Shown: piece after piece, positions 5,823 through 54,351 of the stretch | How positions within the stretch are numbered: the first letter of the stretch is position 1 | How the letters are laid out: every line of letters starts with the position of its first letter | Source of the DNA: Clostridia bacterium | GTDB taxonomy: Bacteria; Bacillota; Clostridia; TANB77; CAG-508 | Assembly (NCBI GenBank): GCA_017524665.1 | Contig: JAFXVF010000002.1 | Span: 13,026-77,025 of the forward strand | DNA: 64,000 nucleotides | Direction: 5' to 3' | The notes under the pieces: generated by a model | What the model was told of the DNA's origin: nothing | The model's input: the letters and a program-made list of their open reading frames with translations, nothing else | Database searches by the model: none | Program-made: the position numbers and the translations under genes

Positions 5823-7118
5823 ATGAAAAAAGGAATAACTCTAATAGCATTAGTAATAACCGTAATTGTATTGCTTATTTTAGCAGGTGTGGTAATTTCA
5901 ATGGGAGTAAGCAGTGAAGGACTATTTACAAAAACAAATGATGCAGTAGATAGATGGAATAAAAAAGTTGCTACAGAAAATGCAAACGTAACAAATTATT
6001 TAGATTACTATTCTCAATATAATGATACAACAGAGGAAGAAAGATTAATAGATTTATTTGAATTAGGAACATTAGAGGTTGGAGATTACGTGGAATATAT
6101 TCCATCAAACACAGATAGGTCAGTAACATTAACGCAAAACCAAACAGGAGTGGAAGGAACTCAAATATATAATTATGACTCTAATACAACATGGAGAGTT
6201 CTAGGTACATATGGAACAGGCGAAAACAAACAAATTGTACTAACAACAGGAAGCCCTCTAAAAAAGAATACAGAAACAAGTACAGGAGGGCAAACACCTG
6301 GATATACAGATTACTTTTTACATTTGGCTGGCGCAGAATCTATTGCTTGGACCAATGATGAATATGTAACTGCAGGTTATATTGATGAAAACATCTTAGA
6401 TAAAGTCTGCAGAATATATGAAAATACAAACTTGGCAAGTCAAGTAAGAAGTATAAGAGCAGAAGATATAAACTACTTTTTAAATGTTGAAATTGAAGAT
6501 GACACTATATACCAAACTACTACTACAGGAAGACATGAAATAAATGATGATTTAATATGGGATTATCCATATAACTATGAATATGAGTATAAATCCGGAG
6601 ATTTCGCTTTAGAAAATTATTTAAAAGAAAACTATCCACAACAATTTGGAAGTTTACCAACAAAAACTGTGGGAGACACAGTACATGGTGGATGTTGTTA
6701 TACCTTTGAATATAATGCAACTGAAGTGGTTGACCCGGAAAGCATGATATTTGAACTTTTATTTAAAGATACAGAAGGGGATTCTTATGATTATGAATAT
6801 GCTGGGCCAAAATCATACTGGCTTGCATCGACTTTTTTCTATAGTTATAATTCAGCCACATATGGTACTGGCTGTGTTTATTCTACTGGATTTGTAGGAT
6901 TTGGATATCTGCCAAGTGGTGATATTCAATTTGGCTCAGATGGACGATATTGTGGTAACGTAGCATGCGTGCGACCAATTGTATTGCTAAAACCAGAAGT
7001 TACAAATAAACAAGTAAAAATATTAAAAAATCATGCTCAAGAACCTGAATGGGGAACAATACCATGGGATGGTTCTTTATATCACTTGACAAATGAATCC
7101 GGCGGACAACTAAACTAG
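5823..7118 (+). CDS. Pilin-like N-terminal-anchor family protein (431 aa). Its N-terminus is MKKGITLIALVITVIVLLILAG.
   Basis: Class-III-like signal/anchor resembling a prepilin but lacking Glu5. Shares the C-terminal '...CVRPIVLL' motif with the paralogs at 32726 and 53302. Confidence 0.6.
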   Translation: MKKGITLIALVITVIVLLILAGVVISMGVSSEGLFTKTNDAVDRWNKKVATENANVTNYLDYYSQYNDTTEEERLIDLFELGTLEVGDYVEYIPSNTDRSVTLTQNQTGVEGTQIYNYDSNTTWRVLGTYGTGENKQIVLTTGSPLKKNTETSTGGQTPGYTDYFLHLAGAESIAWTNDEYVTAGYIDENILDKVCRIYENTNLASQVRSIRAEDINYFLNVEIEDDTIYQTTTTGRHEINDDLIWDYPYNYEYEYKSGDFALENYLKENYPQQFGSLPTKTVGDTVHGGCCYTFEYNATEVVDPESMIFELLFKDTEGDSYDYEYAGPKSYWLASTFFYSYNSATYGTGCVYSTGFVGFGYLPSGDIQFGSDGRYCGNVACVRPIVLLKPEVTNKQVKILKNHAQEPEWGTIPWDGSLYHLTNESGGQLN

Positions 7119-7126
7119 AAATGAAA

Positions 7127-7200
7127 CATTTAGGACGTATAAAAACGTTTCAGGATTATCTGAAATGTTTTTATACGTCCTAAATGTTTTAAATTTTTTT
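7127..7200 (+). terminator. Long perfect hairpin terminator
   Basis: ~30 bp inverted repeat aaacatttaggacgtataaaaacgtttcag / ctgaaatgtttttatacgtcctaaatgttt followed by a T run. Confidence 0.6.
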
Positions 7201-7211
7201 TAAAAATGGTT

Positions 7212-7240
7212 GACAATAATGTATATGCGTTGTATAATAA
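7212..7240 (+). promoter_or_regulatory. Candidate promoter of the S10 operon (TTGACA, 17 bp spacer, TATAAT), with a ~240 nt leader.
   Basis: ttgacaataatgtatatgcgttgtataat. Confidence 0.5.
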
Positions 7241-7484
7241 TAAAGCATGAAATTTGCGATGAAGTGTGATGTGGCTACACCAAATATAGGTGGAGGGAAC
7301 TCACATGGAGTATGTCATGGCTTTAGACCAGGCGGATAAGTTGAAACAAAAGCACTTGTCCTAAAGCATTCAATATATTGAAACTTTAGGTTTTAAAAAG
7401 GGAATAAAAGAAACACCAGGGTGCGTTGATTAAAACTTGCCATAGCCATAAAGGTCACAAACTATATTTAAGGAGGGAAAATTT

Positions 7485-7829
7485 ATGGCAACAAAAAAAC
7501 AAAATGCAGCAACAGTAAACGCAGGAAGTGAAAAAATTAGAATAAGATTAAAGGCTTATGATTATGTTGTTTTAGATCAGTCTGCTGAAAAAATAGTAGA
7601 TACTGCTAAAAGAACAGGAGCAAAAGTTTCAGGTCCTATTCCACTTCCAACAGAAAAGGAAGTCGTAACAATTTTACGTTCTCCACACAAACACAAAGAT
7701 GCAAGAGAACAATTTGAAATGAGAACACATAAAAGAGTAATCGATATTCTTTACCCAACACAAAAAACAGTTGATAGTTTAATGAAATTAGACTTGCCAG
7801 CTGGTGTTGAAATTGAAATCAAACTTTAA
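7485..7829 (+). CDS. rpsJ: 30S ribosomal protein S10
   Basis: 'IRIRLKAYD...[35 protein letters not shown]'. Confidence 0.9.
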
Positions 7830-52227: not shown

Positions 52228-52276
52228 TTGAAACGTTTTTTACGGTCTAAACGTTTCAGGAAAGAGAACTGGCAAA

Positions 52277-52810
52277 ATGTATAGTAAAGAAGAGATAATT
52301 GCAAAAGCAAATGATAGAGATTTTATATTAGATGCAGTAAAAAAAGAACCATGGGTTTATGAATTTGCATCTGATAAACTTCATGATGATGAAGAGATTA
52401 CTTTAGAAGCTGTAAAAAATGACGGAATTGAACTTGAATTCGCAAGTGACAGACTAAAGGATAACAAAGAAATTGTTTTTGAAGCTGTAAAAAAGGCAGG
52501 ATGGGTTGCTTGCTATGCTAGTGAAAAACTATTAAATGATAAAGACATTTTACTAGCTGGAGTAAAAGTAGATGGTCAAATTCTTTATTATGCAGGGGAA
52601 ACACTAAGAGATGACAAAGAAGTTGTTTTAGAAGCGGTAAAAAACAAGGGGATTATTTTAAAATATGCTAGCAGAAGATTAAGAGAAGATAAAGAGGTAG
52701 CAATAGCTGCTATAACGCAAAACAAAGATGCATATGCATATGTATATGATACTATAAAACAAGATGAAGACATACAGAATATTATAAAACCAAAAGAAGA
52801 AAACGCATAG
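52277..52810 (+). CDS. DUF4116 repeat protein
   Basis: Repeated 'KE[IV]VLEAVKN.G..L.[YF]AS..L..DKE' units. Confidence 0.6.
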   Translation: MYSKEEIIAKANDRDFILDAVKKEPWVYEFASDKLHDDEEITLEAVKNDGIELEFASDRLKDNKEIVFEAVKKAGWVACYASEKLLNDKDILLAGVKVDGQILYYAGETLRDDKEVVLEAVKNKGIILKYASRRLREDKEVAIAAITQNKDAYAYVYDTIKQDEDIQNIIKPKEENA

Positions 52811-52841
52811 CAATCACGTAAAATAAAATCAAGCATAGTAT

Positions 52842-53210
52842 ATGATAAGGAGGAATACTATGCTTGATTTTATTTTTAACGTCATATTTTGCACTTTGGC
52901 AATATATGGCTTAATAGAAATCATAAAAAACGTTTATTATACTTTTACATATGCAAATTTAAAACCAGATGGAATTTATATAATTGTGGCAGTCAAAAAT
53001 CAAGAAGAACATATTGAGGGATTTTTAAGGAATTTTTTATTTAGAGTAATTTATGGAAAAGAAGAAATGATTAAACAGATTTTAGTGGCGGACCTAGGAT
53101 CAGAAGACAATACCAAGGAGATAATAGACAAAATAGGATGTGATTATTGCCAGATAAAATCAGTAAATTGGAAGGACTGCAAAGAAATAATAGAAAATAT
53201 AAATGGGTAG
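52842..53210 (+). CDS. Hypothetical small membrane protein
   Basis: ORF with RBS AAGGAGG. Confidence 0.35.
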   Translation: MIRRNTMLDFIFNVIFCTLAIYGLIEIIKNVYYTFTYANLKPDGIYIIVAVKNQEEHIEGFLRNFLFRVIYGKEEMIKQILVADLGSEDNTKEIIDKIGCDYCQIKSVNWKDCKEIIENING

Positions 53211-53301
53211 TTTTATATTGTTTAAAATTATAGTTGCTTTATTGACTTTTTGATTTACAATTATTAAAATAAATGTAACAAAATATAAAAGGAGGAAACA
53301 A

Positions 53302-54351
53302 ATGAAAAAAGGTATAACATTAATAGCTTTAATAATTACAGTGATTGTTTTACTCATAATATCTGGTACGGCAGTATCGTTGGGGCTTGGATCAGATAGC
53401 ATATATGAAAAAACAGACAATACTGTAAAAAAATGGAATGAAAAAGTTGACGAAGAAAATAATACTTTAAATGAACTGTTAAGCTTCATGCCTAATCCAA
53501 ATGTTTTATCTGCTCAAGAATTATATGAAAATGCAAGTACATATTTTGGATGGGATGTAACAAATTATGCAGAGACATTGCCAGAAGAATTACAAGACAT
53601 AGAATGGCAATTATTATATGCTGGACCATTAGAAGACGAAACAGAATCAAGGATATATCTAATTTCAAAAAAATACGTAAACTATACACAGCTTCCTAAA
53701 AAAAATAATGTATCGCTAGTTGAAGTTACTAATGGAAGCGGTAAGACAGCAAAATTTGCTGGCGACGATAATAGTGGAATGATGTTACAATATAGTGGAT
53801 CGAGTGATATTACTGAATCAAAAATCAAGAACCTCAATAAAAAATATTTTAATTATTTAACAAATAATAATTTAACTAGCACGGAACCTAATATAAAAGC
53901 AGTGGCATATATGCTTGACACAGATATATGGGCTGATTATGCTGGAAATTATGCTGAATATGCAATAGGAGGACCAACAGTTGAACTTTTATTTAGTGCA
54001 TATAATCAATATAAAAATCTTACAGGGCAAAATAAATTTATATCAGATGTAAACGACAAGAAAGGATATACTTATACTGTTCCTGGAACAATAGAAAGCG
54101 ATACGGAAACAAAAGATAATCCTTTTTCTGTTTCAAATATTCAAAGTAATGTAACTGGATATAATATTGCTTCTCCATATGGGTTGGATAAACAATATAT
54201 TATATCAATTTATTCTGGAGGAACTATAGGTGCACATTCTCATTACAATAGTTCGGGCTGGGCATTTAGGCCAGTTGTTGTATTAAATACGGGATGTAAA
54301 TTGGAAAAAGTTAAAAATGGGAACAATGATGCATTAAGAATAGTTTATTAA
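53302..54351 (+). CDS. Pilin-like N-terminal-anchor family protein (349 aa)
   Basis: 'MKKGITLIALIITVIVLLIISGTAV' and the C-terminal 'WAFRPVVVL' family motif. RBS AAAGGAGG. Confidence 0.6.
   Translation: MKKGITLIALIITVIVLLIISGTAVSLGLGSDSIYEKTDNTVKKWNEKVDEENNTLNELLSFMPNPNVLSAQELYENASTYFGWDVTNYAETLPEELQDIEWQLLYAGPLEDETESRIYLISKKYVNYTQLPKKNNVSLVEVTNGSGKTAKFAGDDNSGMMLQYSGSSDITESKIKNLNKKYFNYLTNNNLTSTEPNIKAVAYMLDTDIWADYAGNYAEYAIGGPTVELLFSAYNQYKNLTGQNKFISDVNDKKGYTYTVPGTIESDTETKDNPFSVSNIQSNVTGYNIASPYGLDKQYIISIYSGGTIGAHSHYNSSGWAFRPVVVLNTGCKLEKVKNGNNDALRIVY

Follow-up and report, generated by a model that had tools for sequence, protein, structure and literature searches.

Modular pilins and pilin-like proteins lacking Glu5

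Modular type IV pilins, in which a pilin module is joined to an extra domain, are an established design represented by PilB and PilC of Streptococcus sanguinis, both of which have been proposed to be located at the pilus tip (Raynaud et al. 2021, PMC8179133). Here we describe four plus-strand genes (g1 to g4) in a 64,000-nucleotide stretch of contig JAFXVF010000002.1 (hereafter, the window), which comes from a metagenome-assembled genome (MAG) of a gut 'Clostridia bacterium'. The genes share an N-terminal module that resembles a prepilin signal but has Ala instead of Glu at position +5 of the predicted mature protein. We consider it probable that they code for non-canonical modular type IV pilins, a class that lacks this Glu (Glu5). 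The likeness to S. sanguinis lies in the combination of a pilin module with an extra domain and in a monoderm host with PilB/PilT/PilC/PilD machinery, which in our case was found in related genomes. In contrast to the S. sanguinis pilins, whose canonical class III signal (IPR012902) is detected by InterPro, the proteins described here have Ala at +5 and escape the signatures. Moreover, their genes are scattered outside the pilus operon and number at least 11 per genome. The modular design as such is therefore already known; what is new here is a non-canonical signal that current signatures miss.

In bacterial pilins, Glu5 is almost invariant. The tip-capping pseudopilin GspK of type II secretion lacks it and, like the proteins considered here, carries an extra domain. 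A subunit without Glu5 suits the very tip, as there is no subunit above it whose N-terminal charge would need to be neutralised (PMC10191384). However, in GspK-type systems a single subunit is devoid of Glu5, whereas here it is also missing from small, tandemly encoded operon pilins of related genomes. These are likely to represent the major pilin, and its lack of Glu5 would be unusual for bacteria. The class III signals of archaeal type IV pilins and archaellins are frequently without Glu5 as well (PMC4471445). In our case, however, the machinery is of the bacterial type IVa pilus (T4aP) kind (PilB, PilT, PilC, PilM/N-like and a PilD whose N-terminal domain is of the bacterial A24 type), and the leader ends in Gly as in bacteria. 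Finally, some of the bodies resemble the C-type-lectin targets of diversity-generating retroelements (DGRs), namely DUF6273 phage receptor-binding proteins and Bacteroides type V pilus adhesins, in their C-terminal lectin-like domain ending in G[VF]RP. The carrier here would be a type IV pilin module instead of the tail fibre of a phage or a subunit of a type V pilus.

A conserved N-terminal module

The module is ~63 amino acids (aa) long and consists of three parts: a Lys-rich leader of variable length ending in Gly, ~25 hydrophobic residues (ITLIALVIT.IVLLILAG) and a conserved helix (..LF.KA..A...WN.KV.EE). It is encoded at 5823-6011 in g1 (IKP28_00360; 5823..7118, 431 aa), at 30930-31121 in g2 (IKP28_00545; 30930..32645, 571 aa) and at 53302-53490 in g4 (IKP28_00655; 53302..54351, 349 aa). 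The proteins begin with MKKG|ITLIALVITVIVLLILAG, MRKNG|ITLIALVITVIVLLILAG and MKKG|ITLIALIITVIVLLIISG, respectively, and the codons of the Gly at -1 are located at 5832-5834, 30942-30944 and 53311-53313. The fourth gene, g3 (32726..33470), is a frameshifted paralog whose pilin-like frame covers 32739-33470 (243 aa). The original prediction of four genes with a common pilin-like N-terminus holds in that the four N-termini are near-identical and each has Ala instead of Glu at +5. It needs correction in two respects. The start of g2 is the ATG at 30930, not at 30927, as this codon is preceded by a ribosome-binding site (RBS) and agrees with the 571-aa gene call, and g3 is disrupted by a frameshift.

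In g3, the ATG at 32726 stands behind an AGGAGA RBS and is out of frame with the pilin-like open reading frame (ORF) (ATG AAA AAG AAG c GGA ATT) because of a single extra A (+1) in the run at 32729-32733, just after the start codon. The truncated 230-aa product has been called identically on nine contigs; therefore, the frameshift is real, and g3 is either a pseudogene or an 'off' state. All paralogs have runs of five to six A (Lys codons) at the spot where g3 has its extra base, so that on/off switching by slipped-strand mispairing is conceivable.

The similarity of the N-termini is not a trace of recent duplication. In comparisons of gene pairs over 23 codons, we counted 4-14 codon differences that are synonymous only against 2-6 amino-acid replacements. 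Such an excess of synonymous differences indicates that the similarity is held by selection and is due neither to chance nor to recent copying or gene conversion. No fifth copy of the module was found within the window. The only candidate, a weak DNA match at 41976, turned out to belong to an unrelated transmembrane (TM) protein.

The window proteins share several features with class III signals. Their leaders (KK, RKN and KK(K), each followed by Gly) are hydrophilic, as in class III signals, and the uncharged stretch after the Gly extends over 25-27 residues, which covers the ~21 hydrophobic residues typical of this class (PMC4471445). To delineate the family, we used a profile built from the four 63-residue N-termini to search 1.84 billion representative proteins. 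The profile matched 27,204 protein clusters with E <= 1e-3, of which 5,423 reach E <= 1e-10. This result removes the concern, raised with the original prediction, that the N-terminus might not be conserved outside this genome. Of the 149 best hits, 148 have Gly immediately in front of the conserved block and 145 have Ile at +1, while position +5 is occupied by Ala (137), Ser (10) or Val (2). The leaders range from 3 to 170 residues and the complete proteins from 71 to 737 aa.

Across 338 non-redundant members, the boundary at the Gly is equally evident: the information content is 1-2 bits per position in the leader and rises to 3.3-4.3 bits from +1 to +18, with further conserved positions up to +48. 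The mature N-terminus is nearly fixed as Ile (97%), Thr (98%) and Leu (99%), with Ala (91%) or Ser (7%) but never Glu at +5 and Thr (100%) at +9; the 100% Gly at -1 in this set is a consequence of anchoring the analysis on that residue. We conclude that the module defines a very large, real family that is not recognised by current databases. Collections of phages and plasmids gave no match to the module, and the motif string was not found in any paper.

Sequence comparisons point towards type IV pilins, with marginal E-values in the PDB. The best sequence matches of the module profile in the PDB are MshA (E 0.037), geopilin (0.1) and PilA (0.9), and the alignment is in register at the cleavage Gly (kkG|ITLIAL to qqG|FTLIEL). 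Matches to the Pfam N_methyl model with E < 1e-3 occur in 18 of these 149 hits (best 8.1e-5); in the alignment of the g4 family, 14 of 50 sequences match at E < 0.01. The reading as a pilin or pseudopilin variant, one of the two options left by the original prediction, is favoured by the onset of conservation at the Gly, by the in-register pilin matches and by the occurrence of the module on small operon pilins beside a PilD-like gene in relatives.

At least 11 module paralogs are present in this MAG. Another frameshifted module member adjoins IKP28_03645. At L089 (12401-14028), the 737-aa GLUG paralog of the same species is accompanied by a second module-bearing GLUG gene, which is split into three ORFs (328, 164 and 76 aa) and represents a decayed or switched-off family member.

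A type IV pilus operon in related genomes

We surveyed the genomic contexts of family members by scanning one genome per species. This resulted in 393 confirmed loci, of which 80, from 62 assemblies, were kept; all of them come from uncultured Clostridia MAGs, mostly of gut samples. In 11 of the 80 loci, representing 11 GTDB species genomes, the module is found on small proteins (74-167 aa, 1-3 tandem copies) within a conserved operon. The gene order is PilM/N-like (~543 aa), two small membrane proteins (c4 and c5), the module pilins, PilD-like, two other pilin-like genes, PilB, PilT and PilC, so that the module pilins lie directly upstream of the gene for the PilD-like peptidase. We regard this genomic context as the decisive evidence for the pilin reading. 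The identities were assigned with Pfam (A24_N_bact, 3.9e-29; T2SSE, 1.7e-101; T2SSF for PilC, 1.7e-28) and NCBIfam (PilB, TIGR02538, 5.6e-122; PilT, TIGR01420, 319.4 bits against a cut-off of 319.1). In a separate look-up based on independent gene calls and precomputed annotations, one further operon of the same kind surrounded a 72-aa module pilin and was seen on three contigs (L091-L093). One genome (CALXCM01) combines the operon pilins with a dispersed 392-aa paralog.

The 11 PilD-like genes (for example, L028 10471-11283 and L012 8684-9517) encode proteins that keep the Zn-finger N-domain with two CxxC motifs and the first catalytic Asp. Judging from these gene neighbourhoods, the pairing of module proteins with a peptidase is evident in relatives only and not in the genome under study.

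The operon also suggests which protein forms the pilus shaft. The bodies of the short module pilins vary most among the operon products, with a median identity between genomes of 22%; the other pilins reach 36-40% and the machinery 55-77%. High variability is to be expected of an exposed major subunit. Together with the tandem copies and the position in the operon, it points to the small Ala5 pilins as the likely major subunit. Geobacter PilA-N is generally known as a truncated pilin of ~61 aa. Module-only proteins of 69-80 aa, which comprise essentially the N-terminal helix plus a little more, are about as short, but lack Glu5 and are not known to have a PilA-C partner.

A single operon pilin retains an acidic residue at +5, which is Asp in eight of nine cases and Glu in one; Glu is present in L091 as well. 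When the N-termini of ORFs with 50 or more aa were scanned with a regular expression, none of the 80 loci, a set that does not include L091, showed a canonical pilin of the G|FTLIE type. In that contig, the Glu+5 operon pilin (187 aa, G|FTVAE start) appears to run on into a 406-aa ORF ending in ...AGFRAVLIGK (11075-12926). The two ORFs may correspond to one modular pilin of the pilus operon that has been split and that ends in an FGE/C-type-lectin-like part.

C-terminal bodies and their variation

Outside the module, the window proteins differ strongly. The [VF]RP[IV][IV] motif, which the original prediction placed at the C-terminus of three proteins, is indeed present in g1 (6969-6983), g3 (33429-33443) and g4 (54265-54279) and absent from g2, although it lies 8-48 residues before the C-terminus and not at its end. 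It closes a longer element, which is YWLAS...VRPIV in g1 (6816-6983), YWFGT...VRPVI in g3 (33330-33443) and YNIASP...FRPVV in g4 (54160-54279). The bodies were described as divergent from the beginning, and, apart from this element, BLASTP found no homology among those of g1, g3 and g4. Comparison of a hidden Markov model of the g4 family with g1 and g3 revealed a weak shared YW...RP element, and with g1 nothing but this terminal element is common. In eight homologs of g3, the Arg-Pro pair is invariant.

Only the body of g2, composed of GLUG repeats, has a clear assignment (Pfam Glug, 5.1e-17); that of g1 has no Pfam hit. For g3, we found a weak match to DUF6273 (PF19789; E 0.014, 15.7 bits against a gathering score of 23.5) over the C-terminal YW...VRPVI element. 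The scan for DUF6273 returned no match for g1 and g4, so that no window protein reaches the gathering score. However, some members of the g4 family (409 hits) contain this domain, which is detected at E < 0.01 in 11 of 50 family sequences (best 1.5e-5).

Structure prediction, proposed earlier as a way to examine the bodies, gave models of different quality for g4 and g3. The AlphaFold2 (AF2) model of g4 (pLDDT, the predicted confidence, 88.5) consists of helix 5-29, a break, helix 34-62 and an alpha/beta body. A fold search with this model in BFVD placed DUF6273 phage proteins on top, albeit with weak scores (E 7e-3 to 0.1, probability up to 0.84). In the PDB, the top match was the T. ramosa IgA protease with its DUF6273 N-terminal domain (E 0.16), and the search produced no significant match and no pilin. 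The g3 model is of low confidence (pLDDT 61.8), and its PDB search returned C-type-lectin matches only, none of them significant. DUF6273 is reported to be a C-type-lectin-like domain and a DGR target (PMC10743442). On this basis, the bodies of g1, g3 and g4 are probably lectin-like domains of the DUF6273 type, with RP[IV][IV] marking the conserved C-terminal end of the domain.

Other members of the family carry passengers of the adhesin type. Among the 149 module proteins, we identified BspA LRR_5 (13), DUF285 (6), Big_2 (5) and Glug (4) domains as well as fn3, FGE-sulfatase and Cna_B. Modular pilins are characterised by an extra domain that is not pilus-specific (PMC8179133), and the proteins analysed here fit this description, provided that the module is accepted as a pilin module.

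A distinct type of variation was seen only in distant homologs, namely in a set of 26 mutually near-identical g4 homologs that combine the module with DUF6273 (P0103 and 25 others; L094/L095, 10001-11212). The differences are confined to ~28 columns directly before GFRPLVCL and are dominated by Tyr, Ser, Asn, Asp and Gly. In position and residue spectrum, this hypervariable patch looks like a DGR mutagenesis signature. Neither a reverse transcriptase nor a template repeat was found within 10 kb of the hypervariable homologs (L094, L095). A DGR in the window was also considered and rejected, as there is no repeat of the variable/template (VR/TR) type and no RVT domain appears among the precomputed Pfam annotations of the window. 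We found no paper that combines a DGR with a prepilin.

Proposed mechanism and alternative explanations

We propose that the module consists of a class III signal peptide (the short leader, rich in Lys and terminated by Gly), a mature Ile-Thr-Leu-Ile-Ala-Leu... N-terminus and the conserved helix, onto which bulky ligand-binding domains would have been grafted: C-type-lectin-like domains of the DUF6273 type in g1, g3 and g4, and GLUG repeats in g2. The hydrophobic segment would first insert the protein into the membrane, after which a dedicated PilD-like peptidase would cleave it behind the Gly. A PilB/PilC/PilM-N-O machine would then extract the protein and display it on a retractile (PilT) type IV pilus built of small pilins bearing the same module. 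An operon of the kind seen in relatives would presumably also exist in this genome. The protein would probably reside at the tip, where Glu5 could be dispensable, and act as one of many alternative adhesins. In classical pilins, the Gly is critical for prepilin processing, while Glu5 is dispensable for cleavage; Glu5 mutants do not homopolymerise, yet can join mixed filaments (PMC4471445). In addition, a tip complex capped by a subunit without Glu5 is known (PMC10191384). By analogy, the dispensability of Glu5 for processing and the Glu5-less tip cap make a tip location of the Ala5 modular proteins plausible.

Several observations weigh against interpreting the window proteins as pilins. To start with, all four have Ala at +5, where classical class III signals have Glu (PMC4471445). 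In the Pfam search suggested along with the original prediction, the window proteins remained below the N_methyl (PF07963) gathering score of 21.2 bits (9.7, 14.6 and 10.3 bits, and no hit for g3), and a scan of the same proteins against NCBIfam gave no match. The PDB pilin matches cited above are statistically marginal (0.037-0.9), and the G-x-[AS] at +18 to +20 of the module would suit signal peptidase I as well. The g4 model does not show a single continuous alpha-1 helix packed on a sheet. In relatives, the PilD-like proteins have FT[GYN]E (FTGK in L040) in place of GxGD, and only the A24 N-terminal domain is detected in them, with no match to the catalytic Pfam model Peptidase_A24; their activity is therefore not assured. 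The genomic distribution is also unfavourable. In 69 of the 80 loci, as well as in the window, the genes are dispersed among housekeeping genes outside the pilus operon. The search for further paralogs proposed earlier was productive. A PilD or a type IV pilus operon was not located in this MAG in the contexts that were covered; those of paralogs P0145, P0135 and P0123 contain no pilus genes. When the short pilin P0127 or the module profile served as the query, no protein of this MAG was retrieved.

The alternative that deserves most attention is that the pilin-derived module serves merely as a membrane anchor, or as a secretion tag released by PilD, in large dispersed paralogs that are never polymerised into a pilus. 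The dispersal just described speaks for it, as do the paralogs themselves, which at 11 or more per genome are too many for one tip at once, and the failure of Glu5 mutants of classical pilins to homopolymerise (PMC4471445). However, the TM segment and the following helix are near-invariant over thousands of proteins with unrelated bodies. Such near-invariance is not needed in a plain anchor but would be accounted for by packing in the core of a filament or by the need to be recognised by the machinery. Furthermore, the identical module occurs on small operon pilins, and, by general reasoning, a membrane-held protein of 300 aa in a monoderm would lie beneath the wall. We therefore regard this alternative as unlikely.

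Much less probable still is an ordinary Sec (class I) signal, with a Lys-rich n-region, ITLIALVITVIVLLIL as the h-region and cleavage by signal peptidase I behind the G-x-A/S near +20. Gly at +18 (92%) and Ala (65%) or Ser (22%) at +20 do agree with the -3/-1 rule. Unlike in Sec signals, however, the h-region is near-invariant and conservation reaches +48. Moreover, g1 has Val at +20, the uncharged stretch is long (25-27 residues), and the module is found beside PilD in type IV pilus operons.

We likewise give very little credence to the module proteins being substrates not of a PilB/PilD system but of the TadA-type filament-like cluster that ends at 1384. In favour of this idea, g1 lies 4.4 kb downstream of the cluster, whose products include a T2SSE ATPase, a ParA/TadZ-like protein, a membrane protein of 690 aa and six small proteins with TM segments. 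Against it, the small proteins start otherwise (MENASKALIMAGGV...) and have no Gly-ITLIA, and spoIVB, a Mur ligase gene on the opposite strand and spoVG intervene. Moreover, in none of the 80 other loci did the cluster turn up within 10 kb of a family member. The mature N-terminus ITLIAL of the module has no Glu-Tyr as in the Tad/Flp processing motif G|xxxxEY.

The cluster itself is divergent and extends upstream of the window. In full (L006, 17-9818), it encodes the ParA/TadZ-like protein (272 aa), the T2SSE ATPase (658 aa), the polytopic 690-aa protein, the six small proteins and a 556-aa protein. The ATPase is the sole member with a Pfam or NCBIfam name, and its best NCBIfam match, the TadA family, is far under the cut-off (3e-10). 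The window contains the 3' part of the 556-aa gene (1..1384, plus strand), which closes the cluster and is given here as context only. The earlier statement that there are no pilus genes in the window is thus accurate for canonical genes, but it overlooked this last gene of a filament-like cluster.

Returning to modular pilins of a Glu5-less class, we tentatively extend this interpretation to a more general picture, which as a whole is rather less certain than the assignment of the four genes. Uncultured gut Clostridia may build a retractile, bacterial-type type IV pilus from a major pilin without an acidic residue at +5, with the help of a PilD-like peptidase that has Glu (FTGE) at the site of the second catalytic Asp (GxGD). 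This pilus may provide a common stalk for at least 10 interchangeable modular pilin adhesins per genome, some seemingly hypermutated by a retroelement and some switched off by frameshift.

Implications

Glu5 is treated as needed for the assembly of pilin homopolymers. A T4aP lineage without it, if real, would provide a test for models of subunit docking and charge neutralisation. Furthermore, tens of thousands of 'hypothetical' surface proteins of gut bacteria would then be identifiable as adhesins displayed on pili. Surveys that rely on IPR012902 have found ~1,200 modular pilins and would miss this family. It could also extend retroelement-driven diversification of adhesins from the type V pili of Bacteroides to the type IV pili of Firmicutes.

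Genomic setting of the window

The window is part of a 316-kb scaffold (NCBI locus tags IKP28_, ENA ERZ28653651) with a G+C content of ~32%. The surroundings of the four genes are of the housekeeping kind and include the S10-spc-alpha ribosomal cluster, dnaE, pheST, spoVG and spoIVB.

Three other loci of the window stand out. Inside the ribosomal protein cluster, between secY and adk, lies a gene for a 377-aa protein (18681-19814) made of tandem repeats of 150/171 nucleotides (..LEEY..LQ.Q..EREEN..). Two genes upstream of g4, a protein consisting of four DUF4116 repeats (Pfam, 1.7e-57) is encoded at 52277-52810. Finally, a RecD2-like helicase at 55996-58217 is distributed over three consecutive ORFs (173, 190 and 364 aa), representing either a pseudogene or assembly frameshifts.

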